Notes under the pieces: generated by a model | Databases searched by the model: none | What the model was told of the DNA's origin: nothing | What the model saw: only the letters and a program-made list of their open reading frames with translations | Position numbers and translations under genes: made by a program | Origin: Candidatus Scalindua sp. | GTDB lineage: Bacteria > Planctomycetota > Brocadiia > Brocadiales > Scalinduaceae | Direction of reading: 5' to 3' | Assembly: GCA_031316235.1 (NCBI GenBank) | Contig: JALDRA010000001.1 | Span: 1,260,001-1,292,000 of the forward strand | Length of the DNA stretch: 32,000 bases | Shown: in pieces, positions 1 to 16,970 of the stretch | Position numbering within the stretch: position 1 is the first letter of the stretch | How the letters are laid out: every line of letters starts with the position of its first letter

Positions 1-491
1 CTGCAAACAGCAAGACTCCTGAACATATGATAGGATGATGTAACCAAAAGAGAATTCTTTACATTTTGTTCTTTTAATATTGTCATTACGTTTTTAATGT
101 TTTCATAAGAGTTCTGAGAGTTATTCTCAGTCATGATACTTTCTTCATGAATACCGATTTCTACCAGAAAGTTTTTCATTAATTCGGCGACAGACGGCAT
201 TCCCTCCTTAAGGACACCACCACATATTATTATTTTGTCTGCGTAACCCTGATTGTATAAATTATACGCATGGATCATCCTTTGATACGTGTTTCTCTCA
301 AATATATGTTCGGTATAATTTGCCGAAGAGAGAAGAACGATAGCATCTGCTTGCCTGACTTCCGACTCTACTTCTAAAATTGCATATAAATAATTGGTAA
401 CTGGAGTAAAAGGAAAAGTTAGAGCAATTACGTTTAATCCGAGCAGGAAAAAGAATAGTAGTTTATAGTTGGTACCATTGCTTTTTATCAC
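1..491 (-). CDS. DUF218 (YdcF/SanA/ElyC-like) envelope-associated protein; the 3' end runs off the window and the gene is absent from the ORF track
   Basis: Hand translation of the minus strand from GTG at 491 stays open to position 1. It reads VIKSNGTNYKLLFFFLLGLNVIALTFPF (N-terminal TM helix) ... QADAIVLLSS ... IIICGGVLKEGMPSVAELMKNFLVEIGIHEESIMTENNSQNSYENIKN ... LLVTSSYHMFRS. The GG...S-x-AE-x-M...E-x-x-S-x-N-S-x-EN pattern is typical of DUF218. An in-frame TAG lies three codons upstream of the GTG. Confidence 0.6.
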   Translation of the reverse strand, partial: MIKSNGTNYKLLFFFLLGLNVIALTFPFTPVTNYLYAILEVESEVRQADAIVLLSSANYTEHIFERNTYQRMIHAYNLYNQGYADKIIICGGVLKEGMPSVAELMKNFLVEIGIHEESIMTENNSQNSYENIKNVMTILKEQNVKNSLLVTSSYHMFRSLAVC

Positions 492-535
492 GAAAGACTA
501 CCAATTAAATTTATAACACACACAACAATAATGTC

Positions 536-1957
536 TCAAGATACCCCTAATCTCTTCTTTCTGGAGATAGTTTTAAAGAAAAGTCTATATGCAAACTTAA
601 CGTTTACTTTAAAATTCGTATATGATCTTATGTTTAAGAGCTGTGTGACCAAAAAAGGAATCCTTAGATAGGTACTTTTTACAGCAAGTTCAAAATAGTA
701 CTGAAGTTCTTGCCTTGTAAATCCCTTGGGGATATAAGCAAGTGTATAGGTATTATGCTTTGACCAGTCTTCAACAGAAAAACCATCTTTTTTGACCATT
801 TCATACAACTCTGTCCCCGGATATGGTGTAGCATACGTAAAAGAACAAACACTTTTATTGAATGTTCTTGCAAACTCAATTGTTTTCATTATTGACTTCG
901 TTGTCTCTCCAGGCATACCTATTATGAATCCCAAGTCAGGAGTGAGTCCGGCCTCTTTTATCATTTGTATACCCTCTTTTATTTTCTCTATACTTTCGTT
1001 CTTTCTCATACTTTTCAGCATTTCATTATCAGCGGATTCAACACCGATAAATATCTTTACGCATCCACTTTTCTTCATGAGCGCCAACGTCTCTCTATCC
1101 ACATGGTCCGCTCTTATGCTACACCCCCACTTAATCGGCCTTTTAATATTTATGAGTCCTTCACAAATATTTCTGAGCCATTTGTTACTTACGTTCAGGG
1201 TAGAATCAGCTAGAGTCAAATTTCTTACATTATATCTGTCATATAAAAGCTTTATCTCTTCCAGAACTTTCCCAGGAGACTTTGCTCGATAGCTTTTCCC
1301 TATTATACTATGGCCACAAAAAGTACATGAAAATGGGCATCCTCGGCTTACTATTAGACATGCATAATTCTTTTCTATTGTCCATCTGTCCCAGTATTTT
1401 TCCATGGGTAACGATTCCCAATCTGCAAATGGTAAGGAATCTAAATTCTGGATATTTTCCCTAAAAGGATTTATCCTGACTTCACCTTCTTCCCTATAGG
1501 CAATCCCTTTTATATCTTGTAAAGGTTTCCTCAGTTGAATACTCTCTACTAGCTCAAGCATCGTTAACTCACCTTCACCGATAACGGCAATATCAACATA
1601 TGGATAGTTACTTAACAGGTTCTGGTATTCTATGGATGCATGAATCCCACCAAGAACCGTAACCATCTTTGGTAATAATGTTTTCATCTCTCGTAAAAAC
1701 TGTACCGTTTGCCCGACATTGTGCGTCATTACCGTAATACCCAGGATATCTGGGTTTATGCTTTTAACGTATTCTATTATTTCATCTCGACTTTTTTGCT
1801 GAGCAAATGCATCCAACAGAACAACGTCACACCCATTCTGTTTTAAGACACTCGACACCATTGCTAAACCATATGGTTGTAAAAGAGCGGCATAATCAGA
1901 GACATCATCTAAATTTTGAGGTAAGTGTAACAAAAGGGTTTTTACTTTATTATCCAT
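536..1957 (-). CDS. Cobalamin-binding-domain radical SAM enzyme (class B rSAM, methyltransferase-like), paralog pair 1
   Basis: 473 aa ORF. The N-terminal region is Rossmann-like and resembles a B12-binding domain (LLLHLPQN...VLGGIHAS...IAVIGEGE). The radical SAM cluster motif is SRGCPFSCTFCG (CxxxCxxC). The GVESADNEML and GFIIGMPGET motifs are typical of the B12-rSAM family. Confidence 0.9.
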   Translation of the reverse strand: MDNKVKTLLLHLPQNLDDVSDYAALLQPYGLAMVSSVLKQNGCDVVLLDAFAQQKSRDEIIEYVKSINPDILGITVMTHNVGQTVQFLREMKTLLPKMVTVLGGIHASIEYQNLLSNYPYVDIAVIGEGELTMLELVESIQLRKPLQDIKGIAYREEGEVRINPFRENIQNLDSLPFADWESLPMEKYWDRWTIEKNYACLIVSRGCPFSCTFCGHSIIGKSYRAKSPGKVLEEIKLLYDRYNVRNLTLADSTLNVSNKWLRNICEGLINIKRPIKWGCSIRADHVDRETLALMKKSGCVKIFIGVESADNEMLKSMRKNESIEKIKEGIQMIKEAGLTPDLGFIIGMPGETTKSIMKTIEFARTFNKSVCSFTYATPYPGTELYEMVKKDGFSVEDWSKHNTYTLAYIPKGFTRQELQYYFELAVKSTYLRIPFLVTQLLNIRSYTNFKVNVKFAYRLFFKTISRKKRLGVS

Positions 1958-2139
1958 TATTCATTTCTCACTATTGTTAATGGGGTTAGGATAGCCATAA
2001 TTGTTTTTACTTCATTAATAGCTATTAAGCACTTTTCTTTAATACAGCGAGTGTGTAGTAGATCGAAATATATCTCTTTTTTTAACAGCTCTTTGAAAAG
2101 ACGACGCTTACTGCTTCTAAAAAATTAAAAAAGATACAC

Positions 2140-3558
2140 CTACCGCTTAAAGGTAACAAACCTTTTAAAGAAAATACTATAAGCGGCAGTCATCATTATT
2201 TTCAAATTACGAAATGATCTTATCTGTAATAACTGATTTAAAATAAAAGAGACTCGCAAGTAAAAACTCCTTACCGCAAACTTATAATAAAATTCAAGTT
2301 TTTCTTTTGTGAGATCCTTTGGGATATAAGCCATTGTATACAAATCATGCTTAGACCAATCTTTCACTTTGAACCCCTCTTCCTGCGCAATTTCGTAAAA
2401 TTCTGATCCCGGAAACGGAGAGGCAAGAGAAAAAGTGCAAATACCCTTTTTTATTCGCTTCGCAAATTCTATTGTATTTTTAATTGAATCTTCGGTCTCA
2501 CCAGGCATTCCCAGGATAAACCCACAATCAGTCGTTATCCCAACTTCCTCAAGTAGTCGAATACCCTTCTCTATCTTTTCGATCGTAGTACCTTTTTTCA
2601 TTCTTTTGAGAACTCTGTTGTCAGCAGATTCTACCCCCACAAAAGCTCTGATACATCCGCTTCTCTTCATGAGCTTCAGGACTTCTCTGTCAAGCCTTTC
2701 AGTCCTTACATTACAACCCCAAATAAGATGCTTATTCATTTCTAATATACCTTCGCAAATTTCACTCAACCATAGGTTATCCAGATTAAATGTTGAATCG
2801 TGGAATAAGATCTGTCTAACATGAAATTTGTTATACAATAAATTTATTTCCTCAAGAATATTTCCTGGTGATCTCATCCTCGCCTTAACACCGAGAGCGG
2901 TCCTGGCTCCGCAAAAGGTACAAGCATATGGACATCCTCGACTTGCCATAATACCACCGTAGTTCTTTTTCACTGTTATGGCATCAGAATATTTTTCCAT
3001 AGGAAGAGATCCCCAGTCTGCAAAAGGTAATAAATCTAAATTTGCGATATATTCTCTCACAGACGTAATCTTTGTTTCTCCACGCACTCTATGGGCAATT
3101 CCTTTGATCGTATCTAATGAATTTCCACCTTGAATGCTCTCTATGATTTCAAGCATTGTCTGTTCACCCTCACCAATTACGGCTATATCAATTTCCTTAT
3201 TATTACCCATAAGATTGTCGTAATCAGCGCATACATGTGGACCACCAACTACAACTACAATTTCAGGCATGAGTGTCTTTATCTCTTTAAGAAACTGAAT
3301 AGTATAGAAAAGATGCTGTGACATTATAGAAAGTCCAAGGATTTGGGGATTTAGTTCTTTTACATATTCTAAGATGGCGTCTTGCTCTAAACGGTAAACC
3401 GCAGCATCAAACAGTGTCACATCCTTTTTATGGTATTTTAAAAACCCTGAAATAATAGCGAGGCTATACGGATGTAGTATGTTCGTAATCTCATGTACAT
3501 TATCCAGATTTTGAGGTAATCTTAATAGTAAGGTTTTGATATTGTCTTTCATACTCAT
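2140..3558 (-). CDS. Cobalamin-binding-domain radical SAM enzyme (class B rSAM), tandem paralog of 536..1957
   Basis: 472 aa ORF with motif SRGCPYACTFCG. It is collinear with 536..1957 over its full length, and roughly half the positions are identical by eye (LPFADW-SLPMEKY, GVESADN, GMPGET, TIEFA). Confidence 0.9.
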   Translation of the reverse strand: MSMKDNIKTLLLRLPQNLDNVHEITNILHPYSLAIISGFLKYHKKDVTLFDAAVYRLEQDAILEYVKELNPQILGLSIMSQHLFYTIQFLKEIKTLMPEIVVVVGGPHVCADYDNLMGNNKEIDIAVIGEGEQTMLEIIESIQGGNSLDTIKGIAHRVRGETKITSVREYIANLDLLPFADWGSLPMEKYSDAITVKKNYGGIMASRGCPYACTFCGARTALGVKARMRSPGNILEEINLLYNKFHVRQILFHDSTFNLDNLWLSEICEGILEMNKHLIWGCNVRTERLDREVLKLMKRSGCIRAFVGVESADNRVLKRMKKGTTIEKIEKGIRLLEEVGITTDCGFILGMPGETEDSIKNTIEFAKRIKKGICTFSLASPFPGSEFYEIAQEEGFKVKDWSKHDLYTMAYIPKDLTKEKLEFYYKFAVRSFYLRVSFILNQLLQIRSFRNLKIMMTAAYSIFFKRFVTFKR

Positions 3559-3583
3559 CTAGTTTTTCTGCAGCATAAAGGAG

Positions 3584-4669
3584 TTAGTTAATTGTTTTCG
3601 CCGTAAAAGTCCCATTTCTTAATCGATTAGCAAGAAACAGAGCTATTTTTTCGAAACTGTATCCCGTTATATTTATAACAGCGTCCGTTAAACTTAATCG
3701 TATTCCTGATGGTATACTTAAAATTGGTGGTGTACCTAATACTATGCAATTTTCACATAATGGAGATATGTCCAGATAATCTCCCTCTATCATAGACATT
3801 CTCAACCTAACCATCTCTTCTCCATTCCAAATATCAATAAACGATTTTTTTGTTATGTTGCCAATTACATATTCATGGTTTGCGTTATAAACACACGGGA
3901 CAACATCACCATTCCACATAATGCACGCCGTGCTCCAGAGTCTTGAACAAGGACCACAAACGTTACGGTTGTCTCGATAAGCAAATTTATCCGTATCCTT
4001 GAATGTACTTCCCCAAGTTGAGACCTCCCTTGTTCGTATTTCATCTATCAGCCCATCAAAAATTTTTAAGAAAGTTTTTTTCTCCATTTCACTGTAATCT
4101 TCAATTTCAAGTTCCAGGATAGATAATATGGAATAAGGGTACTTACTCTTCCTCTCCTTCTTTAATTTTAAAAAATAGAGAATGTTACGCAGTGTCTTTT
4201 CATAATTTGCTCCTACTCTGGCGCTTTCATACATGCTCTTTTTGAGGCCATCAAAGGCAAAACTTATTTCTGATATTCCAGATTCCAATAAGAGTTCAGC
4301 CTTTTTTTTGGTTAGTAATGTGGCATTTGTATTGAGGAGTACCTTTATCTCTTTTGAATTCGCATATTCAACCATCTTAAAAAATTCAGGATGAAGTAGT
4401 GATTCTCCACTAATTGCGAGCGTGACCGCTGAAGTATATTCGCTTATCTCCACAATTATTTTTTTATAGAGCCTATAATCCATAAAACCTTTTTCAATAT
4501 CAACTTTCCCCGTGCCGGTTGGACACATAATACACTTCAAGTTGCAATTGTTTGTCGGTTCAAGCCATATATAACTTGGCGGATTGACCAGGATTGTCCG
4601 CTTATTGTGGTAGCTCCTTAATGCCCTGAAATTGTTAGATAATATGCTAAATTTCTTTTTGGCTCTCAT
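3584..4669 (-). CDS. Radical SAM enzyme with C-terminal SPASM/twitch-type auxiliary cluster domain
   Basis: 361 aa ORF. The N-terminal motif is EPTNNCNLKCIMCP (CxxxCxxC). The C-terminal CSRLWSTACIMWNGDVVPC fits CX12GX4C, and a later CENC follows. Confidence 0.85.
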   Translation of the reverse strand: MRAKKKFSILSNNFRALRSYHNKRTILVNPPSYIWLEPTNNCNLKCIMCPTGTGKVDIEKGFMDYRLYKKIIVEISEYTSAVTLAISGESLLHPEFFKMVEYANSKEIKVLLNTNATLLTKKKAELLLESGISEISFAFDGLKKSMYESARVGANYEKTLRNILYFLKLKKERKSKYPYSILSILELEIEDYSEMEKKTFLKIFDGLIDEIRTREVSTWGSTFKDTDKFAYRDNRNVCGPCSRLWSTACIMWNGDVVPCVYNANHEYVIGNITKKSFIDIWNGEEMVRLRMSMIEGDYLDISPLCENCIVLGTPPILSIPSGIRLSLTDAVINITGYSFEKIALFLANRLRNGTFTAKTIN

Positions 4670-4681
4670 TATTATTTATTT

Positions 4682-6145
4682 TCAACCATATATCCTATAG
4701 TTAATCATTGAAGTCCTCAGAGCCTCAAAATAATTTGAATATGTTCTCTTCCTTTTTTGGATATAAAGCCCTTTTAATAATACGAAAGGATGTAAAAAAA
4801 TGACCTTTGCAAGAAAGAGGAAAAACCCAGGATATTTAAACAGGTTATAGTTTGGATTCTTTTCACTTGTCGATTGAAATAGCTGTCTGTAATATGCCAG
4901 ATCATTTTGGACTTCGGAAGAACGAAATGTTTGATTCTCTGTCAAAGAGTATGAAACCTCATCCAGTCGTTTATCATCCTCATCACTATATAAAGGAGTG
5001 CCAGGCATAGGCATATAGTAATTAACGGCCACAAAGGTAGAATTTATCTCTTTTAAGAGATTGCCTGTCATTTCCATATCATCCATGGTCTCACCAGGAA
5101 GTCCAATAATCATGTAGGAATAAGAGTAAATGCCCGCATCATTAATCGCCTTCACTCCCCTCTTTATCTGATCAACATTAATACCCTTGTTTACCATCTT
5201 TAAGATCTTCGGCGAGCCGGATTCAATACCAAGTGCCAGTTGAAAAAAACCAGCTTTCTTCATTAATCCAAGAATTTTTGGATTATCTACCTTATCCACT
5301 CTTGTTTGAGCATAAATTTTCAGCTTGATTTTCTCCTTCAGTATCTCCTTACAGAACTCTATGATTCTTTCGTTTTTGTAATAAAAGAGATCGTCAAGAA
5401 AAACCAACCCCTTGATTTTGTAGTTTTTTACCTGCCACTTTATCTCTCCGATAATGTCATCGATTGTCCTTTCCCTAAACACATTCCTTACGTTTTCTGT
5501 GCAAAATTTGCATCCAAAGGGGCAGCCTCTGTTAGCCATCATAAATCCAGTCTTGAGAAAGTGCCCGGGAATGCCACCAAGTCTGATATTTGTATAGTGT
5601 GCGTATTCAACAAGATCAAAAGCTGGATACAAGAGGGTATCAAGGTTTTTTGGATCACGATACTTAGTAGTAACAAGATCTTTTCCATTCTGATACGCAA
5701 TTCCGTTAACGTCTTCAAGACCACGTTGTAAATTATATGCATTTAATAATTCAACGATTGTTTCCTCCCCTTCACCGATTACGACCGCGTCTGCACCATA
5801 AGCTAGATATTTTTCCGGTACATAAGATGGGTCTTTTCCTCCACATACTACTATTTTCTCTTTTGTTGTTGCTTTGATCTGCTGTATTATCTCACCGGTA
5901 ACGCTTCTATTCCAACTGATTACTCCAAAACCGATAAAATCAGGGTCATATTTGTACAATTCAATCCACAACTTTTTATTCTTCTTTTTGTTGTAGTTTT
6001 CATCAATAAATTCTATTACTTTAACCTCATATCCAGCATCCGCTAAATAACTAGCAACATATAATAACCCCAAAGGTGGTCTCCATCCCTTTCTTGGGTT
6101 TATGAGCAATACCTTTCTTTTTGCTGGAAGAGTTCTCATTATCAT
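4682..6145 (-). CDS. Cobalamin-binding-domain radical SAM enzyme (class B rSAM), paralog pair 2
   Basis: 487 aa ORF with motif NRGCPFGCKFCT. The N-terminal part resembles a B12-binding domain (LLINPRKGWRPPLGLLYVASY...VVCGG...VIGEGE). It also carries LGIESGSPKIL and IIGLPGET. The start may be M1 (6145) or M3 (6139). Confidence 0.9.
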   Translation of the reverse strand: MIMRTLPAKRKVLLINPRKGWRPPLGLLYVASYLADAGYEVKVIEFIDENYNKKKNKKLWIELYKYDPDFIGFGVISWNRSVTGEIIQQIKATTKEKIVVCGGKDPSYVPEKYLAYGADAVVIGEGEETIVELLNAYNLQRGLEDVNGIAYQNGKDLVTTKYRDPKNLDTLLYPAFDLVEYAHYTNIRLGGIPGHFLKTGFMMANRGCPFGCKFCTENVRNVFRERTIDDIIGEIKWQVKNYKIKGLVFLDDLFYYKNERIIEFCKEILKEKIKLKIYAQTRVDKVDNPKILGLMKKAGFFQLALGIESGSPKILKMVNKGINVDQIKRGVKAINDAGIYSYSYMIIGLPGETMDDMEMTGNLLKEINSTFVAVNYYMPMPGTPLYSDEDDKRLDEVSYSLTENQTFRSSEVQNDLAYYRQLFQSTSEKNPNYNLFKYPGFFLFLAKVIFLHPFVLLKGLYIQKRKRTYSNYFEALRTSMINYRIYG

Positions 6146-6147
6146 AC

Positions 6148-6313: not shown

Positions 6314-6328
6314 TATTATCCGTTTTTT

Positions 6329-7942
6329 TTAAAATTTTTGCATATGAAACTGTATTGCATCTTTTATTACTGCCATAGGCGACATTTGGTGTGTCTTATG
6401 TGCAAGATATCTTAAATAAAATCCTTCAAGAAAAATCAATGGATGAAACAGAATATACTTTAATAAGAATAAAATAAAGCCTGGATACGAAAATAGGTTC
6501 TTATTTCTATCCACAACCGACAGGGACTCAAACTCATCTCCTACCATCTTAAGAGCATCTAAAGGAATAGTGGTAGAAAATTCAGGATAATCTGTCGTAT
6601 ACGTAAACCCTTTAAAACCTTTTCTATCTACTAAAAACTTTGCACTACTTATTTCAAACTCAAAAGAAGGTGTACCGGGCATTGGCATATAATAGTTAAC
6701 GGCAACGTTAGTAGCCTTGATCTTTGTAAGCAATGCTCTCGTCATTTTCCTGTCTTCATCGGTTTCTTCCGGATGGCCTACTATGATGAAGGCGAACGTG
6801 TTAATACCGGCTTCATTATAAATCTCAAAGGCATTTTCTATCTGTTCAACAGTAATACCTTTCTTCATAGAATCCAGGATTTTTTGTGACCCTGACTCAA
6901 CACCAACAGCTAAAAGCAGAACACCGGCATTTTTCATCAGTTCCACTGTCTCTTTTTTTACTTTGTCAACCCTTGCGTGGCAAAAAAACTTTGTTTTTAC
7001 GTTTCTTTCAATTATCTTCTTACAAAATTCAACAGTGCGACTTTCTCTAAAATAAAAAAGATCATCAAGTACCACAAAACCCTCGATATTGAATTTATTT
7101 ATCTGCCATTCTATTTCATCTATCAAATCATCAACACTTCTTTCCCTGTATGAGCTACGGATGTTTGTTGTACAGAATTCGCATCTATAGGGACATCCAC
7201 GACTTCCGAAAATAAACCCTGCCCGCAGATAATGGCCGGGTATGCTCTGTAAACGAAAATCTACATATTTTTCATAATCGACAAGCTCAAATGCTGGACG
7301 AAGAATATAGTCCATCGGCAGAAATGATCTCTGTGGGGTAGATGTAATCTTACGGTCTCTTAAATATGCAATACCTTTAACCGCATCTAATGATTCTTGA
7401 AAATTTAAGGCATCCAGCAACTCAACAATAGTAATCTCAGACTCTCCGATAGTACAGAAATCTGCACCACTAAAGAGCAGATCGTTCGGGTTAGAAGTTG
7501 CATGTTTACCGCCACAGATAATGATTTTTCGAGGCATCTCTTCCCGAACCTTGGATATTAATCTTTGAGTAATCCTGAATGTTGAACTGATAACTCCAAA
7601 TCCGACAAAATCAGGATCATAGTTCTTGAGGTCTCTCCAGATTCCTCTATTATATCTGACATTGGGTGGATAGAGTTCATCCAGGAATTCGAAAATTCTC
7701 ACTTCGTATTGATTATCCAGTAAATATGCCCCGATATATAAGAGTCCCAGTGCCGGACGGCCTCCCTTTCTCGGCTGAATCAAGGCAATCCTGTTTCCCA
7801 CTCTTTTGTCAGCCCTGTTGCGGGATCTATCAAGAACAGTATGACTTTCTTCCATGATAATCCTGTCGTTGTCTCTGAGTGTAGACGCCACTTTTTTTTC
7901 ACTATGAGAAACTGTATTATCTACAATACACCGCACGCTCAT
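6329..7942 (-). CDS. Cobalamin-binding-domain radical SAM enzyme (class B rSAM), tandem paralog of 4682..6145 with an N-terminal extension of about 50 aa
   Basis: 537 aa ORF with motif SRGCPYRCEFCT, collinear with 4682..6145 (ALGLLYIGAY, YDPDFVGFGVIS, VAVNYYMPMPGTP). A strong Shine-Dalgarno AGAGGAGG lies 9 nt upstream of the ATG at 7942. Confidence 0.9.
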   Translation of the reverse strand: MSVRCIVDNTVSHSEKKVASTLRDNDRIIMEESHTVLDRSRNRADKRVGNRIALIQPRKGGRPALGLLYIGAYLLDNQYEVRIFEFLDELYPPNVRYNRGIWRDLKNYDPDFVGFGVISSTFRITQRLISKVREEMPRKIIICGGKHATSNPNDLLFSGADFCTIGESEITIVELLDALNFQESLDAVKGIAYLRDRKITSTPQRSFLPMDYILRPAFELVDYEKYVDFRLQSIPGHYLRAGFIFGSRGCPYRCEFCTTNIRSSYRERSVDDLIDEIEWQINKFNIEGFVVLDDLFYFRESRTVEFCKKIIERNVKTKFFCHARVDKVKKETVELMKNAGVLLLAVGVESGSQKILDSMKKGITVEQIENAFEIYNEAGINTFAFIIVGHPEETDEDRKMTRALLTKIKATNVAVNYYMPMPGTPSFEFEISSAKFLVDRKGFKGFTYTTDYPEFSTTIPLDALKMVGDEFESLSVVDRNKNLFSYPGFILFLLKYILFHPLIFLEGFYLRYLAHKTHQMSPMAVIKDAIQFHMQKF

Positions 7943-9217: not shown

Positions 9218-9291
9218 TATGTACCTCCTTTAATTGATATTGATTAATACTTCTTAAGGGGTCGGGAAAAGCAACTTTACATTCTTGCATC

Positions 9292-10347
9292 TCATTTTAA
9301 GGTTACCTTTGCCTGATCATTATTCACAGAATCCTCAACTATTTGCTGTACACGCCAGCAGTCGCATTTAGAGCATGTTTTGACCTTTTGATGGTTTCTT
9401 CTAAAATTATTAATTCTGTCTCCATGCCAGATATCATTTATATCTTCTTCCAAGACATTTCCAAATTTAGAATTTGGCAAGACACAGCAGGGAAGCATAT
9501 CTCCATCATGATTGATTAATGGATAATCCAGTAATCTTGTACAACATGAATCCATTCTGAGGAAATACTTAAAATGTTTATACAAAAAGCCCATGAATCC
9601 GGTAAAAAACTGATCCTGCAAACAATCTATTCTTACGTTATACTTTTTTCTCAGTCGGGAAAATTCTCTAAATACCTCCTTCTCTTTTTCTCTACCAGGC
9701 CGTTCAAGGCCATTATCAAAATACATATGCATGCGTAATACATTTATTCTGTGAATATTATTGTTTGCCCCCCACTCGATAACATCGTACACATCTTGCT
9801 CCCTATCTTTGAACAAGACAGTTTGAAAAGATATCTTTGGAGTATCTACTTCCATTTCTTCTTTCAGCGCACAAAACATCTTTATATTTTTTAAAACTTC
9901 TTTATCGCGATGTGCAATTTCATCAGTACTGTTTCCGTTAATACTTTCAAGAGAGAACGAAATAGTATCTAAACCTGACAAAATTATTTCTCTTATCTTT
10001 TTGTCACTATTTAACAACAATCCGTTTGACGTTATCTTGACAATCATTCCTTTTGCTTTGCAATACTTGATAGAATCTAATATTCTCGGGTGAGTCAGAG
10101 GTTCTCCCAAACCGACAAGACTTATCTCCTTTACGCCTTCGAGTCTGTCAATTATTTTTTTAAACGTTTCGTACTCTATATGTGTTTTTTCAATACCAAC
10201 ATGATGAATGGGACACATTTTACATGTCAGATTGCAGGCATTCGTAATATCAAGTTGAACAAAATAGGGAAACCGTGCTGGTTTGTGTAAAATCCTTTTC
10301 AGTACCATTAAGGGAAAAGGTTCAGGTTTAATATTACTTTTTACCAT
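9292..10347 (-). CDS. Radical SAM enzyme with SPASM-type C-terminal domain, paralog pair 3
   Basis: 351 aa ORF. It carries DITNACNLTCKMCP (CxxxCxxC), and CTRLLDYPLINHDGDMLPC fits CX12GX4C. The terminal motif is CSKCDC. Confidence 0.85.
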   Translation of the reverse strand: MVKSNIKPEPFPLMVLKRILHKPARFPYFVQLDITNACNLTCKMCPIHHVGIEKTHIEYETFKKIIDRLEGVKEISLVGLGEPLTHPRILDSIKYCKAKGMIVKITSNGLLLNSDKKIREIILSGLDTISFSLESINGNSTDEIAHRDKEVLKNIKMFCALKEEMEVDTPKISFQTVLFKDREQDVYDVIEWGANNNIHRINVLRMHMYFDNGLERPGREKEKEVFREFSRLRKKYNVRIDCLQDQFFTGFMGFLYKHFKYFLRMDSCCTRLLDYPLINHDGDMLPCCVLPNSKFGNVLEEDINDIWHGDRINNFRRNHQKVKTCSKCDCWRVQQIVEDSVNNDQAKVTLK

Positions 10348-10368
10348 AACTGTTTTCGTTTTTTATTC

Positions 10369-11388
10369 CTAGTTCAATTCAATCTGTCTTAATCGTGCAA
10401 AATCACATCCTGAACACCAGGGAGTTTTATAATAGTTTTTTCTGAAAATTTTATATTTAGCGCTCTTCCAGATCTGTTTTAAATCTTCACCACACAAATT
10501 TCCCATCCTATTGTCAACCAAGGCACAGCATGGATTCACATACCCCTCTACATTGATATACACAAAATCGTGTAGCCTGATACAGTGCCTGTCCATCCCT
10601 AATAGACGTTTAAAGTGTTTATACAAAATTCCATTTATTCCTGTGTATACCCTATCCTGAATACAGTCTATTCTTATATTATGTTGCTTCCGATACTGGT
10701 CAAACTTACGAAAGATCGCTTTCTCTTCCCGTACAGTTGGTCTCTCAACATTTGTTAATGTATTATGCTTTTCAAAACGGGCAACATTCACTCTGTCAAT
10801 ACCATTTAAAGCCCCCCATTCGATAATATCGAAAATGTCTCTTTCCCTACTCTTTATCATTAGTGTTTGGAGGGTTATCTTAGGAACTTTAGAGTTCAAC
10901 TCTTTCTTAAGCTCAACCAATCTTTTTATGTTCTCCAAGGCAGATTGATTCGGATGCGCTATATCGTTCACCTCTTCAATACTTTCCAGAGAAAATGTTA
11001 CTAAATCTAAGTCTGAAGTGATGAGATCCTTTATTTTTCTATCTGGTTTCAGGAGCATTCCATTTGAAGTTAATTGGGTTTCAAACCCTTTCTCCTTACA
11101 GTACCTTATGGCATCTAAGATTTTAGGATGTAACAATGGTTCACCATACCCACAAAGTGATACCGTATCAACACCTTCAATCTTATCGATAATTTGTTTA
11201 AATAATTCAATATCCATGTGCTTATAATCAAGTTTAATAAAATGCTTAAAACACATAGTACAATCCAGGTTACACAGGTTGGTTATCGCTATTTGTGCAC
11301 TTCTTGGAAATTCTGCCGGAATATTTAATGCTGTCTTTAGTATTTTTTTTGTGATACTTTTATTCATCGTATGTATTATGGTTGTCAA
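10369..11388 (-). CDS. Radical SAM enzyme with SPASM-type C-terminal domain, tandem paralog of 9292..10347
   Basis: 339 aa ORF. It carries AITNLCNLDCTMCF, and CIRLHDFVYINVEGYVNPC fits CX12GX4C. The terminal motif is CSGCDF. It is collinear with 9292..10347 (GEPL-HP-ILD-I-YCK-KG, ITSNG/LTSNG, DVIEWGA/DIIEWGA). Confidence 0.85.
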   Translation of the reverse strand: MTTIIHTMNKSITKKILKTALNIPAEFPRSAQIAITNLCNLDCTMCFKHFIKLDYKHMDIELFKQIIDKIEGVDTVSLCGYGEPLLHPKILDAIRYCKEKGFETQLTSNGMLLKPDRKIKDLITSDLDLVTFSLESIEEVNDIAHPNQSALENIKRLVELKKELNSKVPKITLQTLMIKSRERDIFDIIEWGALNGIDRVNVARFEKHNTLTNVERPTVREEKAIFRKFDQYRKQHNIRIDCIQDRVYTGINGILYKHFKRLLGMDRHCIRLHDFVYINVEGYVNPCCALVDNRMGNLCGEDLKQIWKSAKYKIFRKNYYKTPWCSGCDFARLRQIELN

Positions 11389-11402
11389 GCCATGAACACT
11401 AT

Positions 11403-12455
11403 TTAAGGTGTAGCCAGTGATGGTTTTTTGAAACGTTCAGCTTTTTTATCTATCTTCTCTATATCATGAAGTTTGCTAACGGCCAGTCTGATCGTTTCCT
11501 TCCAGTCAGTAATCGTATACCCAAGTTCCCTTTGCGCCAATTCAGAAGTATAAAATAGATTCTTAGTGACCATCATTGCCACAATTTTGCTAATGTCTGT
11601 ATCTTGTTTTACAATTACAGAAAATATTTCAACCATTAAACCAAGCAAGAGCAAGAGCGTTTTAGGCAAACGAATATTAGGCGCTTTTCCTGAAGAGGCA
11701 GAAGCAATCTCACCAAGATATTGTTTATATGTTATATTACATCCGCCCAAAATATATCTCTTACCGCATAGACCCTTTTCATAACACTGTACCAATCCTC
11801 TCACGAGATCATTTACATTGGTAAGACACAGCCCTCCGGGGGGGAACACCTTCAGTTTTCCTTTTGCAATACTCATGAAGGTACGAAACTGATCGTTTTT
11901 CATACCATGGGCACCTACAGTGCTACAGGGAATTGCAACAACTGCATCCAAACCATTTCGAACCTCTTTGAGTACCTCTTTCTCTCCTCTATATTTTGAA
12001 ATGGCATAGGGATCGTAATAAGCGTTAAAGGTATATGTTTCGTCTGCTATTTTATCATTATCCGGATAACCAACTGCGCTTGATGAACTGACATGAATAA
12101 GACGCAACCCACCAACTCTTCTTGCCACTTTAGCAATAGTCCTGGCCGCTCTAATATTGATAACATCTCTCATATGTTGATATCTCTTTAATGATGATCC
12201 ACAGACAGCAAGGTTATAAACCACCTCACATCCTTCCATTGCATTTTCGAGGCTTGTCTCAACCGTCTCTTTATCTGATAAGTCTCCCAGTACTGATTTC
12301 CAGGACAACCCAATCAAGTTTTTTAAGTCTGAACTCTTCCTGTGATAGATAACAACCTCATTTCCTTTCTCTCTTAAATATCGAACAAGATTGCTGCCGA
12401 TAAATCCTGTCCCACCTATGACTAACGCCCTATTTGTCTTCTCTGAATTTTCCAT
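11403..12455 (-). CDS. NAD(P)-dependent epimerase/dehydratase, extended SDR family
   Basis: 350 aa ORF with the N-terminal dinucleotide motif VIGGTGFIGSNLVRYL and the catalytic YAISKYRGE (YxxxK). Confidence 0.85.
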   Translation of the reverse strand: MENSEKTNRALVIGGTGFIGSNLVRYLREKGNEVVIYHRKSSDLKNLIGLSWKSVLGDLSDKETVETSLENAMEGCEVVYNLAVCGSSLKRYQHMRDVINIRAARTIAKVARRVGGLRLIHVSSSSAVGYPDNDKIADETYTFNAYYDPYAISKYRGEKEVLKEVRNGLDAVVAIPCSTVGAHGMKNDQFRTFMSIAKGKLKVFPPGGLCLTNVNDLVRGLVQCYEKGLCGKRYILGGCNITYKQYLGEIASASSGKAPNIRLPKTLLLLLGLMVEIFSVIVKQDTDISKIVAMMVTKNLFYTSELAQRELGYTITDWKETIRLAVSKLHDIEKIDKKAERFKKPSLATP

Positions 12456-12466
12456 AATAAATTAAA

Positions 12467-13480
12467 TCAATTCGTATTCCCATTGTTCAGTAGAGAAACT
12501 CCGGTCTCTGAGAACTTAAAATCCAGAAATTTTAAGTTCTCATCCGCCATCACCCCTCGGAGTTCTTCCTGTCTCTCTTCATTACAGTAAAAGACAAAAT
12601 ACCCTCCTCCACCTGCCCCGGTTATCTTACCTCCCAGGGCACCATGTTTAAGGGCAATATCATAGACACGATCAAGAAAGTCACTCGTAATTCCTCTGCA
12701 CATTTCCTTCTTATATTTCCAGGCCACATCCAGTAATGTCCCAAACAATTCCAGATCACCCAGCTCCAGAGCTCTCTTGATGTCGTAGGCGTTATCCTTT
12801 ACCCTGGCCATGGCAGTAATGATCGATGATCCATCCCTCTTTGTCGAATCATCCTGTTTCTGCAATATCGTTGTGGCTTCTCTGGTTCGACCGGTAAAAA
12901 ACAGCAACAAATTCTTTTCCAGTCTTGTTTTTACGTCTGGTTCAATTGATATCGGGGTAACGGAAACCCTGTTTTCGTAAAATTCCATAAAGTTCAAGCC
13001 GCCGTACGCAGCAGCATATTCGTCCTGTTTTCCAATCGGAAGGTTCAGTATTTCTCTTTGTATGAAATACGCGTCTTCAGCAATCTGGCGTTGAGTAAGG
13101 GTTTCATTCTTCAGCCTGGAACAGAGGTGAACCATATTCACCGTTACCGCGCCTGAAGACCCGAGCCCGCTTCCGGGAGGAACTTCAGATGCGGTAAAGA
13201 GATCAAATCCGTGATAAAGTCTATAATGCTTAATCACAGCACTGGGGATATCAAAACCTTCACCGAATTTCAGACTGTAAAAATCATCCACAGAAAGAAG
13301 TGACTGAAAGTCAGAAGAGATCATCTGAATCTTTTCATCTTCACGCGGTTTATAGAAACTGTAAAAATACTTGTTGATCGTAATGCTTACGACAGCACCG
13401 CCATGTTTTTCATAAAACCCCGGCATATCAGTGCCACCGCCACCAAAGCTGATCCGGACCGGTGTTCGGGTAATAATCAT
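12467..13480 (-). CDS. GHMP-superfamily sugar kinase, COG2605 / HddA-like (D-glycero-D-manno-heptose-7-phosphate kinase or fucokinase-type)
   Basis: GHMP motif EVPPGSGLGSSGAVTVNMV, QDEYAAAYGG, the C-terminal GKITGAGGGGYFVF, and an N-terminus MIITRTPVRISFGGGGTD typical of this family. The ORF track extends the gene to a TTG at 13537. The ATG at 13480 is preferred because it matches the family N-terminus. Confidence 0.8.
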   Translation of the reverse strand: MIITRTPVRISFGGGGTDMPGFYEKHGGAVVSITINKYFYSFYKPREDEKIQMISSDFQSLLSVDDFYSLKFGEGFDIPSAVIKHYRLYHGFDLFTASEVPPGSGLGSSGAVTVNMVHLCSRLKNETLTQRQIAEDAYFIQREILNLPIGKQDEYAAAYGGLNFMEFYENRVSVTPISIEPDVKTRLEKNLLLFFTGRTREATTILQKQDDSTKRDGSSIITAMARVKDNAYDIKRALELGDLELFGTLLDVAWKYKKEMCRGITSDFLDRVYDIALKHGALGGKITGAGGGGYFVFYCNEERQEELRGVMADENLKFLDFKFSETGVSLLNNGNTN

Positions 13481-13617
13481 TTCGTTTAACTGTTCCCTAT
13501 AAATAGTATGTCCATCGTAAAGACGCCAGACACGCAAAGGTAAAACGATAGTAATAGAGAAGATTGGTTACAATGTCCAATACCCACAGATGGGATTAAA
13601 GAATTGGTAATACTCTT

Positions 13618-14358
13618 TTAAACTAAGCGCCATTTACAGTGAACTCTCTCATTATAATGCTGCTTTACGTAATCCTTAAATATCCTTAAACGCTCCGGAG
13701 TACCGATATCATAAAATCTTTCCTGTGTGACAAAACCGGCACACTCCTGTCCGGCTATATAGTCTGGGAAAATCTCCCGTTCAAGGGATACCTCTTTATC
13801 CGGAGGTATACTATCCAGAATATCTTTTTTCAGCGCCAGGACCCCGGCATCCACGTATTGGAGAACAGGGTTTCCTCTATTTTTATCATACCGCGTTACC
13901 ATCCCTCTGTTATCAAGAGATACATTATTCGGCACTGAAGTATCTACCCTGTTGTCGTACACAACCATCAGGACTTTTTTATCTACTTCAAAGAAACGCC
14001 TTTCTATTGATGAATAATTTACAGGCAGGAAAGAATCTCCGTATATAAGGTAGAAACAATTGTCTAAATGTTTTGCTGCATTTTTTAATGCACCGCCTGT
14101 ACCAAGCGGGTTTTCCTCAAAAGAATAGGTAATACTCATATCCCTGGACTGGCCGTCACCAAAGTGGCTTTGTATCTGTCCCCCCAGATAGCCGACGCAA
14201 AGCAGGATATCAGTTATCTTATACCTTTTCAGATACTGAAGCTGGTATTCAAGGTATGGTTTCCCAATAACCGGTATCATAGGCTTGGGAGTCTTCAGGG
14301 TTAATGGCCCGCATCTGGTTCCCAACCCGCCAGCCAGAATTACTGCTTGCAGTGTCAT
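13618..14358 (-). CDS. Sugar-1-phosphate nucleotidyltransferase (NTP_transferase family, HddC/RmlA-like)
   Basis: MTLQAVILAGGLGTRCGPLTLKTPKPMIPV carries the G-x-G-T-R pyrophosphorylase signature, and LGTGGAL and YGDSF follow. The track start at 14412 is a TTG that coincides with a predicted -35 box, so the ATG at 14358 is preferred. Confidence 0.8.
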   Translation of the reverse strand: MTLQAVILAGGLGTRCGPLTLKTPKPMIPVIGKPYLEYQLQYLKRYKITDILLCVGYLGGQIQSHFGDGQSRDMSITYSFEENPLGTGGALKNAAKHLDNCFYLIYGDSFLPVNYSSIERRFFEVDKKVLMVVYDNRVDTSVPNNVSLDNRGMVTRYDKNRGNPVLQYVDAGVLALKKDILDSIPPDKEVSLEREIFPDYIAGQECAGFVTQERFYDIGTPERLRIFKDYVKQHYNERVHCKWRLV

Positions 14359-14384
14359 AGAATAAATATAATTTATCAGTGAGA

Positions 14385-14412
14385 AATATATAACGTGTGC
14401 AGCTTCAGGCAA
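14385..14412 (-). promoter_or_regulatory. Candidate sigma-70-type promoter for the nucleotidyltransferase-to-DUF218 operon
   Basis: The minus strand reads TTGCCT (14412..14407), a 16-nt spacer, then TATATT (14390..14385). The -10 box ends 26 nt upstream of the ATG at 14358. Confidence 0.4.
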
Positions 14413-14415
14413 ATA

Positions 14416-14438
14416 CTTATCACTATGAATGTGATAAG
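14416..14438. promoter_or_regulatory. Perfect 8-bp inverted repeat (CTTATCAC-N7-GTGATAAG) directly upstream of the candidate -35 box; possible operator or activator site
   Basis: Read directly from the sequence: cttatcac tatgaat gtgataag. It abuts the -35 box at 14407-14412. Confidence 0.3.
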
Positions 14439-14882
14439 ATAAGGAAAGCTAAAATCATGCCGATATGTGATTTCGCAAGAGACGAAAAAGGCACATCCCG
14501 AACTTTCTATGTATAAATGACTTACACACATTGTTTATGAAGAAATAAATCGTGGGGAATATTTCACTTTCTCTGTACGTTATGCAGTATAATTTTTCAA
14601 CACAATGTGGAAAAATATTCCCTCATCCCTGAAAGAAGGATTTGTGCAAAAAGACCTATGGAAAATGATGGTATCCAAACAAGGGCTCAAAGGAAAGAAA
14701 TTACAGCAAGAATAGGCAATGGGGCAACATGCGGAGTTAATTCTATTTCTTTGCAGTTTAAAGTAATGAACCAGTTGATTTATTTGACTAGATTTTGTTG
14801 GCAATTTGAACTGTTTATAGACGATGAAGAGATTTTGGTATTGAAAGGGCATACCTTTCTGATTTTGTTTAAGTAACGATTT

Positions 14883-16970
14883 TTACCAGAGAGCTTTGAT
14901 CTGTTCTAGATTCATCATTGCGTCTTCATTCTCCGGATCCAGTTCCAAGGCTTTTTGAAAACACAATGATGCCTTTTCATTATTCCCCTGCCTGGAATAG
15001 ACGAACCCCAGATTGTTCAATACCATGGGACTACCGGGTTTAAGCTTGAGAATGTTAACGAATATTCCTTCTGCCTCTTTGAACTTATCCTGGTGGCAAT
15101 AAGCTTCGCCAAGTTTACCCAGCAAGTCTATTCTGTATGTTGTTGAAACCATTTGTTTTTCAATAATCCTGTTGTAAAATCTGAAGAGAAGCCTGTAATT
15201 ACCTGACCGGATTAAGCACTCACCCAGTATCAGCAAGTGTTCTATTTTATAGGGGTCTTTTGCCAACAGCTGTTTTGAAATCTCCAGAGTAGAATCCCAA
15301 TCTTGAGGATCAAGATTATCTAAAGCCACGTTTTCCTTTGAATTTATCTCTATTCTTTTCTGTATGGATTTATTATTGGTTTTTTCAAAAAATGACATTA
15401 ATTTTGTTAATTCCTCATCTGCCCTAAACAGAGGATACCCTTTTAGGTTTTCATCCCTTGCATAACATACCCCACTCAATTTTTCGAAATCTTTAATATC
15501 TCCTCTCCCATCGGATAAGACTATTATCTCAGGAAACCCTGATTTAAAGACATTCTCTCTCTGTTTTATTATTTTAAAATTCTTAAATTTATAAATCGAA
15601 TTCAAAAAATCAAGCAAAGCGGGATTTGATCTATTGTAAATTTCCAGGTAGTCTTCTGCATATAAGCAAATTCCGGGTTCAAGGCAAAATGTGTCCATTT
15701 CTGAATAAAGATATAGGTACGGACTCCAACCGCAAATGAGAATTTTATCATCAGGATTGGAGCTATTTTTTATATATTTTGCAATCTTAATTGGATTTTC
15801 ATAATTTACTTTTGTAAACTCTTCACCATAAAACTTTTTGAGAAAACCGTACGGGTCTTTATGGGGAATGTAGAATTTATAATCAATGCAGACGGCATAG
15901 AAAAACAGACCGAAAACCACTAGGGTACTACACCATTGTATGATATTAAAATGAGGCAAAACATTTAAAGTAGAAACCATTTCACTCAGGCTATAACTAG
16001 CCAGAATGACAAACCATGGTACCATATAGAGCCAGTAATGAGGAAAAAATGTTCCTCGCATAAAGACCATCCAAACAGATGCAATGAGGCATGCAAACAG
16101 TCCACAATAAATGATTGAAAAGCTATTATTAATAAAAGTAATTAATGTAATAATGGTAAGAAACATTAAGGGAAACATAGATGAAGAATTTTTCAAAATA
16201 ATCTTTTTTTTTGCTTTCTTGTGTATCTCTCCCCTTACGAAACCTCTTGGATAAAATTTATTATATTTCTTTGGATTGATAGCAGAGGGAAACATCATTA
16301 ACCAGTTGCAGGCTAGATATTCCCAAAAAGCTCCTCTCTTCAAATAATAAATGAGCGGTATAAGATTAGAAACGAAGACACCTCCACCAAAGATAAAGAA
16401 CGAAGTCAAGGTACTGTTTAGTCCCATCATTATGAGAAGATATCCGGGTAGATAGAGGACAGCTGTTTGCTTGACCAGAATTGAATAACCAAAAAAGAGA
16501 CCCGATAGGGCAATGAGAAGATGGCTGTCAGTCTTGGATGACTGGAGGATTAAACAGAGACTGGCAAGTAAAGGTAGGGCTAAAATCGTTTCAAAAGGCC
16601 CCCAATTCCCGTCAATACGTGGGTTTACTATATAGAGAGCATAGAGTATTCCCGCTATCATCGCAGCTGAAAGGCCACATAAATCATAGACTATCCAGTA
16701 TACAATAAATGCAGAGAGAGAGCACCATAAGCACATTAGCCTGTTGTAATATTTATTCTCTTTTCCAACAAAGAATTGCAGCACTATTAAATGTAAATAA
16801 TGCCCTATTGTGTAAACAGGAATATCTTTAAAGAAGGTAATTTTTCTTTTCAACACCTGATCTACATAATATGAACTTCCTGCCTGATCCTGTCCATATG
16901 GAGTTTTAAGGAAAGGTATCCAGGTGATAATACCAAAAGCAAAGATTAAGATACTGGTATAATATTCCAT
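14883..16970 (-). CDS. Polytopic GT-C-fold glycosyltransferase (ArnT/PMT-like) with a C-terminal TPR domain
   Basis: 695 aa ORF. The N-terminal 370 aa or so has many hydrophobic helices (ILIFAFGIITWIPF, LSAFIVYWIVYDLCGLSAAMIAGILYALYIV, LALPLLASLCLIL, FFIFGGGVFVSNLIPLIYY, PLMFLTIITLITFI, WLYMVPWFVILASY, LVVFGLFFYAVCI). An acidic first loop (YGQDQAGSSYYVDQ) is present. The C-terminus has TPR-like repeats (EAYCHQDKFKEAEGIFVNILKLKPGSPMVLNNLGFVYSRQGNNEKASLCFQKALELDPENEDA). Confidence 0.7.
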   Translation of the reverse strand: MEYYTSILIFAFGIITWIPFLKTPYGQDQAGSSYYVDQVLKRKITFFKDIPVYTIGHYLHLIVLQFFVGKENKYYNRLMCLWCSLSAFIVYWIVYDLCGLSAAMIAGILYALYIVNPRIDGNWGPFETILALPLLASLCLILQSSKTDSHLLIALSGLFFGYSILVKQTAVLYLPGYLLIMMGLNSTLTSFFIFGGGVFVSNLIPLIYYLKRGAFWEYLACNWLMMFPSAINPKKYNKFYPRGFVRGEIHKKAKKKIILKNSSSMFPLMFLTIITLITFINNSFSIIYCGLFACLIASVWMVFMRGTFFPHYWLYMVPWFVILASYSLSEMVSTLNVLPHFNIIQWCSTLVVFGLFFYAVCIDYKFYIPHKDPYGFLKKFYGEEFTKVNYENPIKIAKYIKNSSNPDDKILICGWSPYLYLYSEMDTFCLEPGICLYAEDYLEIYNRSNPALLDFLNSIYKFKNFKIIKQRENVFKSGFPEIIVLSDGRGDIKDFEKLSGVCYARDENLKGYPLFRADEELTKLMSFFEKTNNKSIQKRIEINSKENVALDNLDPQDWDSTLEISKQLLAKDPYKIEHLLILGECLIRSGNYRLLFRFYNRIIEKQMVSTTYRIDLLGKLGEAYCHQDKFKEAEGIFVNILKLKPGSPMVLNNLGFVYSRQGNNEKASLCFQKALELDPENEDAMMNLEQIKALW

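Follow-up and report, generated by a model that had tools for sequence, protein, structure and literature searches.

The stretch of DNA analyzed here (the window) comprises 32,000 nucleotides (nt) of contig JALDRA010000001.1 from the marine anaerobic ammonium-oxidizing (anammox) bacterium Candidatus Scalindua sp., and it holds roughly the right-hand two thirds of what we take to be a chromosomal glycan locus. The locus consists of genes for radical S-adenosylmethionine (rSAM) enzymes, together with genes of the kinds that activate, oxidize, and aminate a sugar. The original prediction, made from the letters of the window, had described twelve co-oriented minus-strand genes running from position 14358 to beyond position 1, and this order was reproduced from the list of open reading frames (ORFs) and the Pfam matches. 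The twelve genes, followed by the gene immediately upstream of them, are as follows.

1..491, minus strand, cut by the window end: DUF218 (SanA/YdcF/ElyC-family) protein; the window has the first 163 codons out of 211; hydrophobic stretch at the N terminus, resembling a membrane anchor.
536..1957, minus strand: B12-binding-domain radical SAM enzyme B12_1; PF02310 and PF04055; CPFSCTFC.
2140..3558, minus strand: B12-binding-domain radical SAM enzyme B12_2, paralogue of B12_1; PF02310 and PF04055.
3584..4669, minus strand: radical SAM/SPASM (twitch-like) enzyme SPASM_3, BtrN-like; PF04055 and PF13186; six C-terminal Cys only.
4682..6145, minus strand: B12-binding-domain radical SAM enzyme B12_4; PF02310 and PF04055; CPFGCKFC.
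6329..7942, minus strand: B12-binding-domain radical SAM enzyme B12_5, paralogue of B12_4; PF02310 and PF04055; CPYRCEFC.
7970..9217, minus strand: DegT/DnrJ/EryC1-family sugar aminotransferase; PF01041 at 240 bits against a cut-off of 19.8.
9292..10347, minus strand: radical SAM/SPASM enzyme SPASM_7; PF04055 and PF13186; CNLTCKMC; eight C-terminal Cys.
10369..11388, minus strand: radical SAM/SPASM enzyme SPASM_8, paralogue of SPASM_7; PF04055 and PF13186; CNLDCTMC; seven C-terminal Cys.
11403..12455, minus strand: extended short-chain dehydrogenase/reductase (SDR), HpnA/3beta-HSD-like oxidoreductase; PF01370 at 93 bits.
12467..13537, minus strand: GHMP kinase, HddA-like (a relative of the heptose-7-phosphate kinase family); PF00288 and PF08544.
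13618..14358, minus strand: sugar-1-phosphate nucleotidyltransferase, ManC/HddC-like; 246 amino acids (aa); PF00483 at 78 bits.
14883..16970, minus strand: polytopic membrane protein with C-terminal tetratricopeptide repeats (TPR), a candidate GT-C glycosyltransferase; 695 aa, with clear TPR matches.

The gaps between the twelve cluster genes were found to be 11–80 nt, except for two of 182 and 183 nt. A scan for promoters and terminators, the overall yield of which was not above the shuffled expectation, detected no terminator-like hairpin on the coding strand in these gaps. With regard to transcription, the short gaps and the lack of a terminator-like site between the cluster genes count in favor of the pathway that is proposed below. 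No cobalamin riboswitch or other RNA element was found in the window, where the only RNA hit is a tRNA-Asn. Each of the seven rSAM proteins of the cluster carries a single CxxxCxxC motif, as had been noted from the sequence, and chance is excluded by Radical_SAM E-values of 1e-15 to 1e-27. The PF04055 scores of the seven are 58–95 bits against a gathering cut-off of 29.5. Six of these proteins form three pairs of paralogues, with identities of 52% for B12_1 and B12_2, 46% for B12_4 and B12_5, and 48% for SPASM_7 and SPASM_8. The guanine-plus-cytosine (GC) fraction is a mosaic, with values of 0.363–0.365 for the rSAM genes, 0.357 for the TPR gene, 0.418 for the DegT gene, 0.431 for the kinase and nucleotidyltransferase genes, and 0.416–0.446 for the housekeeping genes. 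The DegT, kinase, and nucleotidyltransferase genes are thus like the housekeeping genes, and the rSAM and TPR genes are lower (positions 1–16970 compared with 17734–30910).

Gene content, domain identities, and catalytic motifs can be read directly from the sequence, and none of the cluster proteins reached a curated cut-off in a scan of NCBIfam. The nucleotidyltransferase begins with an ATG at 14358, as does a 100% identical NCBI protein from Ca. Scalindua, and it is 64–80% identical to other proteins from Scalindua and Brocadiales. B12_2 likewise has a 100% identical NCBI protein from Ca. Scalindua. Its best NCBIfam matches are to mannose-1-phosphate guanylyltransferase (148 bits; cut-off 440) and to HddC (126 bits; cut-off 300). 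For the GHMP kinase, which was found in 10 of the 14 related clusters tabulated, the top match is NF049969 HddA at 217 bits against a cut-off of 600. A sugar isomerase (SIS) gene from a related cluster in an Omnitrophica metagenome-assembled genome (MAG), L016, scored 107 bits on TIGR00441 gmhA (cut-off 209). All three scores fall short of the equivalog cut-offs, yet HddA, HddC, and GmhA are the top or near-top models for these proteins. The SDR scored 191 bits on TIGR03466 HpnA (cut-off 368); its best match in the PDB is 3wj7 (1e-33), and the YxxxK motif is present as YAISK. The DegT protein has kept the lysine for pyridoxal phosphate (PLP), since its SFGYGK segment aligns with the lysine of 7b0m at the position where dehydrases have a histidine. 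The nearest solved relatives of this protein are a sugar aminotransferase, GDP-perosamine synthases, and ArnB, and its gene is found in nearly all of the related clusters.

The three SPASM enzymes have a C-terminal domain with cysteines for auxiliary Fe-S clusters, for which the PF13186 scores are 44.5–57.8 bits against a cut-off of 21.5. The best PDB match of SPASM_3 is BtrN (1.7e-13), and orthologues of this enzyme were found in most related clusters at 47–79% identity. SPASM_7 has a weak PDB match to BtrN and a 64% identical orthologue in L016, where the orthologue of SPASM_8 is 58% identical. Scores on the tungsten-cofactor maturase model were 112–134 bits (cut-off 380). Enzymes with SPASM domains and B12-domain rSAM enzymes are common as maturases of peptides, and weak matches to ApyD, rSAM_ocin_1, and WgkB were obtained, so that the locus could be read as a cluster for the maturation of a ribosomally made and post-translationally modified peptide (RiPP). 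This reading was rejected as highly improbable. All of the RiPP models scored far below their cut-offs, and the intergenic regions contain no plausible precursor ORF. The two gaps of about 180 nt are not conserved, and the same genes are 47–113 nt apart in L018 and L019. The cluster has no peptidase or ABC exporter, and genes for nucleotide sugars are its constant partners. The nearest solved relatives of the radical enzymes (BtrN, AprD4, and BlsE) are sugar enzymes, which argues for sugar-type radical chemistry and not for the maturation of a peptide.

In the four B12-domain enzymes, an N-terminal B12-binding domain (PF02310, 49–86 bits against a cut-off of 32.1) is fused to the rSAM core. 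These enzymes scored 167–256 bits on BchE (TIGR02026; cut-off 481.35) and 121–211 bits on HpnJ (TIGR03471, the hopanoid cyclitol-ether rSAM; cut-off 577.6), all below the cut-offs, and no bacteriochlorophyll genes lie nearby. The individual values for BchE and HpnJ were 256 and 207 bits for B12_1 and 209 and 211 bits for B12_2; BchE is also the best NCBIfam match of B12_5 (175 bits). The best PDB match of B12_5 is AprD4 (1.8e-16), and AprD4 was likewise matched by B12_2 (1.8e-20). B12_4 has a 66% identical orthologue in L016. The orthologue group of B12_2 comprises about 66 clusters at identities of at least 40%, from Omnitrophica, Magnetococcales, Desulfobacterales, and other MAGs, after which there is a sharp fall to generic B12-domain rSAM proteins. 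The models for C- and P-methylases gave lower scores than those for BchE and HpnJ. AprD4 has a B12-binding domain, yet it is a diol dehydratase that makes no use of cobalamin. The expectation that the sugar would be heavily C-methylated was not upheld, because the four enzymes score closest to BchE (a cyclase), HpnJ (ring contraction), and AprD4, and not to the C-methylases. From these similarities, methylation is possible as just one among several chemistries.

The host is an anammox bacterium, and TIGR04072, a "ladderane" model for B12-domain rSAM proteins, was matched at 102–148 bits. Both facts could speak for a tailoring of ladderanes or of the alkyl chains of other core lipids that is specific to anammox bacteria. 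We have rejected this explanation, which we consider the least probable of all those weighed here. The cut-off of TIGR04072 (360) was not reached, and the closest orthologues come from non-anammox phyla (Omnitrophica, Magnetococcales, and Desulfobacterales). The rSAM genes of the block vary from one Scalindua genome to another, whereas ladderanes are found throughout the anammox bacteria, which also counts against it. A ladderane function predicts that the block should occur in all anammox genera and nowhere else, and the data show the opposite. The window contains no genes for an acyl carrier protein (ACP), FabZ, or a ketoacyl synthase (KS). The ladderane cluster of PMC10139942 differs in this respect. 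The locus is understood, as was first proposed, as one for the activation and tailoring of a nucleotide sugar, and it is neither a peptide nor a ladderane system.

The truncated DUF218 gene at the left edge of the window could be completed from a 7.7-kb Logan contig (L001), which is identical to the window and adds 2.1 kb leftwards. The translation is identical to that of L001:5686-6321, and the full-length protein from this contig scored 93.6 bits on PF02698 (cut-off 27.6). The DUF218 gene recurs in most of the related clusters. It is followed on L001 by a gene for a 430-aa rSAM protein (rSAM430), just past which the contig ends. In L016, L018, L022, L024, and L025, the operon extends past the point that corresponds to the left edge of the window and includes rSAM430, a further B12-domain rSAM, a 329-aa GT2 glycosyltransferase, and a methyltransferase of ~204 aa. 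A leftward continuation with glycosyltransferases had been anticipated, and it is what is seen in these close relatives. Conservation in the family is strongest for rSAM430, with identities of 52–67% across all other phyla, and its proteins form a tight group of ~115 clusters whose lower edge is sharp. Among solved proteins, BlsE or MoaA (1e-9) are nearest to rSAM430. A fold search with a predicted model (pLDDT, the predicted local distance difference test, 90) returned only generic rSAM/twitch neighbors at a TM-score of ~0.5 (SkfB, viperin, SuiB, BlsE, and MoaA), from which no specific function follows.

The cluster was found to be conserved across phyla and variable between strains. The Omnitrophica MAG L016 has orthologues of the SDR, SPASM_7, SPASM_8, DegT, the four B12-domain rSAM enzymes, DUF218, and SPASM_3 at 58–66% identity and in nearly the same order, and a second Scalindua-like contig (L018) has them at 60–92% identity; the synteny was counted as covering 11 genes. 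Rearranged forms are present in Magnetococcus (L020), Desulfobacterales (L003 and L021), Pseudodesulfovibrio sp. (L048), and the cultured Desulfobacula phenolica (L023, GCA_900105645.1). A minimal form (L033/L034) retains SPASM_3, rSAM430, a flippase-like protein, DegT, a B12-domain rSAM, and an HpnJ-like gene, and it adjoins a DUF2142 membrane protein. Four Scalindua genomes share the TPR membrane protein, the nucleotidyltransferase, and the kinase, and the rSAM block that follows differs in content and order each time. Surface-glycan loci that evolve under diversifying selection typically have such a layout of constant anchors with a variable block. Other rSAM-dense loci, with five to six tandem genes for B12-binding rSAM proteins that are only 24–30% identical to those of the window, were observed in two deltaproteobacterial MAGs (L005:6683-19721 and L007:8033-17360).

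The related clusters contain genes that are lacking from the window. GmhA-like SIS genes are located between the kinase and either the SDR or DegT in L016, L018, and L047. In L003 and L023, a GmhB-like phosphatase of the HAD family forms a fusion with the nucleotidyltransferase, and L048 has an HldE-like gene that combines PfkB with a cytidylyltransferase-like part. Together, these supply all of the parts of the known routes for heptose activation, which argues for a heptose-type starting sugar, and the earlier suggestion of a heptose-like sugar is strengthened by these genes. For Kuenenia, which is also an anammox bacterium, GDP-heptose has been reported, as have O-glycans of oligo-heptose on the S-layer protein (preprint 10.1101/2020.12.03.409086). 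The homologous cluster of Desulfobacula phenolica is headed by a transketolase split into an N and a C part (L023:529-2267), which may provide for the supply of a ketose phosphate or for a two-carbon extension of the sugar. A conserved protein of ~530 aa with no Pfam match is encoded beside the fused nucleotidyltransferase-HAD, kinase, or HldE-like genes in the non-Scalindua clusters L003, L023, L030, and L048 (for example, L023:3157-4752).

Genes of the envelope type are found in the loci of many relatives. They encode GT2 enzymes of the polyprenyl-phosphate type (PpgS/AglJ/Dol-P-hexose-transferase-like) with DUF2304, and a flippase-like TIGR00374 protein; GT-C-like membrane proteins also occur among these loci. 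Within the L018 cluster there are genes for adenosine 5′-phosphosulfate (APS) kinase, ATP sulfurylase, a pyruvate-kinase-like protein, and a sulfotransferase (L018:15208-17906 and 21267-21413), which suggests that the product of this variant is sulfated. Ahead of the locus in Ca. Scalindua rubra are genes for a GFO/Hexapep fusion, a TPR protein with a GT1 domain, an rSAM, and a GT2 with DUF2304 (L047:1-9790).

The Ca. Scalindua rubra locus lies 8 kb downstream of flgL-fliW-csrA, with the TPR and GT1 protein between them, and the Magnetococcales, which are rich in this family, are flagellated. An island for the glycosylation of flagellin, a modification of a cytoplasmic protein, could have this appearance. 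Flagellar genes stand beside only 1 of the ~15 loci compared, and the flanks of the window consist of ilv/leu and glycolysis genes. Components of the lipid-carrier and GT-C types work in the periplasm, where flagellin is not glycosylated. We therefore find a flagellin island very doubtful.

The likeness of the radical enzymes to BtrN, AprD4, and BlsE, which belong to the biosynthesis of aminoglycoside and nucleoside antibiotics, could alternatively mean that the locus makes a diffusible natural product. This would be an aminoglycoside- or aminocyclitol-like compound or one that contains a heptose, comparable to butirosin, apramycin, hygromycin B, or pactamycin. The DegT protein also resembles 2-deoxy-scyllo-inosose aminotransferases, and the patchy distribution of the cluster, suggestive of horizontal gene transfer, and the low GC of the rSAM genes agree with such an origin. 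A sugar-phosphate cyclase, a resistance gene, and an exporter are present in none of the loci examined. What recurs instead are the polyprenyl-phosphate-type GT2 with DUF2304, the flippase-like protein, DUF218, and the TPR and GT-C-like proteins, and some variants have genes for the synthesis of 3′-phosphoadenosine 5′-phosphosulfate (PAPS) and a sulfotransferase, which are typical of surface glycans. A diffusible product is accordingly judged to be quite improbable.

The matches to HpnJ bear on another interpretation, that the product is a glycolipid with a head group of the hopanoid type. A lipid-attached sugar would then be converted by HpnJ/Cds-like chemistry to a carbocyclic (cyclitol-like), aminated head group, and the other B12-domain rSAM enzymes would act on the lipid or on the head group. 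Scalindua makes hopanoids, and the genes of the locus parallel hpnA/I/J/L, with an HpnA-like SDR and with HpnJ as a top match for B12_1 and B12_2. The left-flank B12-domain rSAM of the relatives scored 390 bits along the whole HpnJ model, which is still short of the cut-off, and an LPG_synthase_TM/flippase-like gene is present. HpnJ and Cds have been proposed to be ring-contracting rSAM enzymes that act on lipid-linked sugars (review PMC13459092). On the other side, the scores for HpnJ and HpnA are all below the curated cut-offs, the GT2 is not HpnI-like, and shc, hpnH, and hpnG are found in none of the loci. The cluster occurs in Omnitrophica, Magnetococcales, and Desulfobacterales, which are not known to produce hopanoids. 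The nucleotide-sugar module, the GT2 of the dolichyl- or undecaprenyl-phosphate (Dol-P/Und-P) type, and the GT-C-like proteins fit a route through a carrier lipid better. We regard a head group of this kind as unlikely.

We consider it somewhat probable that the locus encodes an Arn-like, oxygen-independent pathway for an envelope glycan, in which a hypervariable block of radical enzymes acts on a heptose-type sugar. The substrate, each of the chemical steps, the lipid-carrier route, and the acceptor that we infer are as follows. The GHMP kinase and the nucleotidyltransferase, as relatives of HddA and HddC, would give a nucleotide-activated heptose-type sugar. This sugar would be oxidized by the HpnA-like SDR to a keto-sugar, which DegT would convert to an amino-sugar. 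The seven rSAM enzymes of the cluster would then remodel the amino-sugar without oxygen. For the three SPASM/twitch enzymes of the window, the most likely reactions are C–H oxidation or epimerization, as with BtrN, and the four B12-domain enzymes may catalyze methylation, dehydration, or rearrangement of the ring (compare GenK, AprD4, and HpnJ). Later steps would fall to the genes beyond its left edge (rSAM430, the HpnJ-like B12-domain rSAM, the GT2, and the small methyltransferase). A lipid carrier would probably take up the product, which would then be flipped and joined, in the periplasm, to an acceptor in the envelope, such as the S-layer protein, another glycoprotein, or lipopolysaccharide. 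The upstream TPR membrane protein, as a candidate GT-C enzyme, would attach the sugar.

A number of observations weigh against this pathway. No equivalog cut-off was reached by any cluster protein, so that all of the substrate assignments rest on analogy. The window contains no gmhA or gmhB gene, and there is a gap of 11 nt at the place where relatives carry the SIS gene. The nine or ten radical enzymes seem to be more than one seven-carbon sugar requires. The left part of the operon is known from the relatives and from the identical 7.7-kb contig, and not from the window itself. Orthologues of rSAM430 at 65–66% identity are encoded on two high-GC contigs that have no sugar genes (L029:9968-11263 and L039), where the neighbors are DUF72, a gene like PLP-dependent ornithine/diaminopimelate/arginine (Orn/DAP/Arg) decarboxylases, a uroporphyrinogen-decarboxylase-like (URO-D-like) gene, and a nitroreductase; these may represent a second, different use of the enzyme. 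Finally, the assignment of the TPR protein to GT-C was not established, since the PMT_2 score of 22.7 bits is below the Pfam cut-off of 26.1. The PMT_2 match of its orthologue in L046 is weak as well, TPR proteins were all that a profile search against the PDB brought up, and a single-sequence AlphaFold2 (AF2) model had a pLDDT of 42.

Orthologues of the TPR protein, 64–70% identical to it, are encoded by two other Scalindua genomes, L046 and L047, and L049 has at the same place a gene for a TPR protein that is likewise 695 aa long. In all four genomes, the gene is upstream of the nucleotidyltransferase gene, to which it is adjacent in the window (with 524 nt between them), L047, and L049 and from which it is 6 kb away in L046.

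A more specific proposal, which we offer tentatively and regard as doubtful, is that the locus is the variable half of an anaerobic pathway that is widespread yet has gone unrecognized, and that it makes a new class of envelope sugar. Beginning with a nucleotide-activated heptose, nine or ten rSAM enzymes would yield a derivative of an amino-heptose that is carbocyclic (HpnJ/calditol-like, ring-contracted), multiply C-alkylated, or both, and that is delivered through polyprenyl phosphate to the S-layer or the outer membrane. Strains would diversify through these radical enzymes and not through glycosyltransferases.

Upstream of the TPR gene, the genes in the window's right half are those of an ordinary chromosome (leuA, ilvC, ilvN, larC, nadD, gap, pgk, rpe, accD, and tRNA-Asn). 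One gene in this part also encodes a radical enzyme.

17734..19641, minus strand: B12-binding radical SAM protein, 635 aa; overlaps the leuA stop by 4 nt; GC 0.433.

This protein would be the last of the eight rSAMs of which the original prediction speaks. It is 25–28% identical to the B12-domain rSAM proteins of the cluster, its GC is that of the housekeeping genes, and it is separated from the TPR gene by 763 nt with a terminator-like hairpin at 17037-17019, detected in the same scan that overall did not exceed the shuffled expectation. No orthologue turned up in the related loci compared, and the protein is probably not part of the system. The gene is apparently the last of an ilvN-ilvC-leuA operon, and the protein is extended at its C terminus by ~200 aa for which no family was matched. 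Farther to the right, at 24758-25750 on the plus strand, the 330-aa NadD (nicotinate-nucleotide adenylyltransferase) is extended at its N terminus by ~115 aa, again without a family match; this extension may be an artefact of the start codon, a GTG.

Taken as a whole, the original prediction holds in part. The sugar locus, the heptose-like character, the extension to the left, and the absence of a match among characterized pathways were retained, and the heavy C-methylation, the GT-C enzyme, and the eighth rSAM found no support in the form first given. With respect to characterized pathways, all of the NCBIfam models scored below cut-off with the cluster proteins, and a cluster of this kind was not found described in the literature searched. 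If the proposed pathway is correct, strict anaerobes diversify their surface sugars by radical chemistry and not with oxygenases or additional glycosyltransferases. Several new sugar-modifying rSAM activities would be expected, including those of the tight, unannotated 430-aa family and of an HpnJ-like enzyme outside hopanoid biosynthesis. The locus would also open a genetic approach to the envelope of Scalindua, marine anammox bacteria that are important in oceanic nitrogen loss and whose envelope glycans are little known. The related cluster in Desulfobacula phenolica, a cultured sulfate reducer, makes the question experimentally testable.

The locus may be compared with five kinds of known systems. 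As in the GDP-heptose pathway, an HddA-like GHMP kinase adjoins an HddC/ManC-like nucleotidyltransferase, and the GmhA-like SIS and GmhB-like HAD proteins are supplied by relatives. It differs in that the scores are well below the equivalog cut-offs, the window has neither the isomerase nor the phosphatase, and 7–10 rSAM enzymes follow here, where the known heptose pathways have none. The Arn pathway for the 4-amino-4-deoxy-L-arabinose (L-Ara4N) of lipid A (ArnA, ArnB, ArnC, ArnE/F, and ArnT) shares the oxidation of a nucleoside diphosphate sugar by an SDR, a DegT transaminase (ArnB is among the best matches), a polyprenyl-phosphate GT2, a flippase, and a PMT_2-family GT-C transferase, for which there is a candidate here. 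The sugar is another one, no formyltransferase or deformylase is present in our locus, and rSAM enzymes are absent from Arn.

The enzymes BtrN (butirosin), AprD4 (apramycin), BlsE (blasticidin S), and GenK (gentamicin) abstract hydrogen atoms from sugars and cyclitols, and the first three are those to which SPASM_3, the B12-domain enzymes tested (B12_2 and B12_5), and rSAM430 come nearest among solved proteins. This similarity is distant (E-values of 1e-9 to 1e-20) and mostly confined to the rSAM core, and our locus has no 2-deoxy-scyllo-inosose synthase and no context of the antibiotic type. Hopanoid tailoring by hpnA/I/J/K/L and the archaeal calditol synthase Cds are paralleled by the HpnA-like SDR, the HpnJ-like B12-domain rSAM enzymes, the HpnL-like flippase-like protein, and the GT2. 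Genes for the synthesis of hopene, an HpnI-type glycosyltransferase, and the HpnK deacetylase are missing here, and the scores are below the equivalog cut-offs.

Loci of the O-antigen or capsule type also have constant anchors and a variable center, and the lower GC of the rSAM genes relative to the flanks is a further likeness. In those loci the variable part consists of glycosyltransferases, whereas it is made up of rSAM genes here, and no Wzx/Wzy/Wzz or ABC exporter was seen. As a kind of system, a locus for the tailoring of nucleotide sugars and for glycosylation is known. The features that are undescribed, as far as our searches show, are the density and diversity of the rSAM enzymes, the conserved core of rSAM430 and an HpnJ-like protein, and the role of the radical enzymes as the part of the locus that varies.

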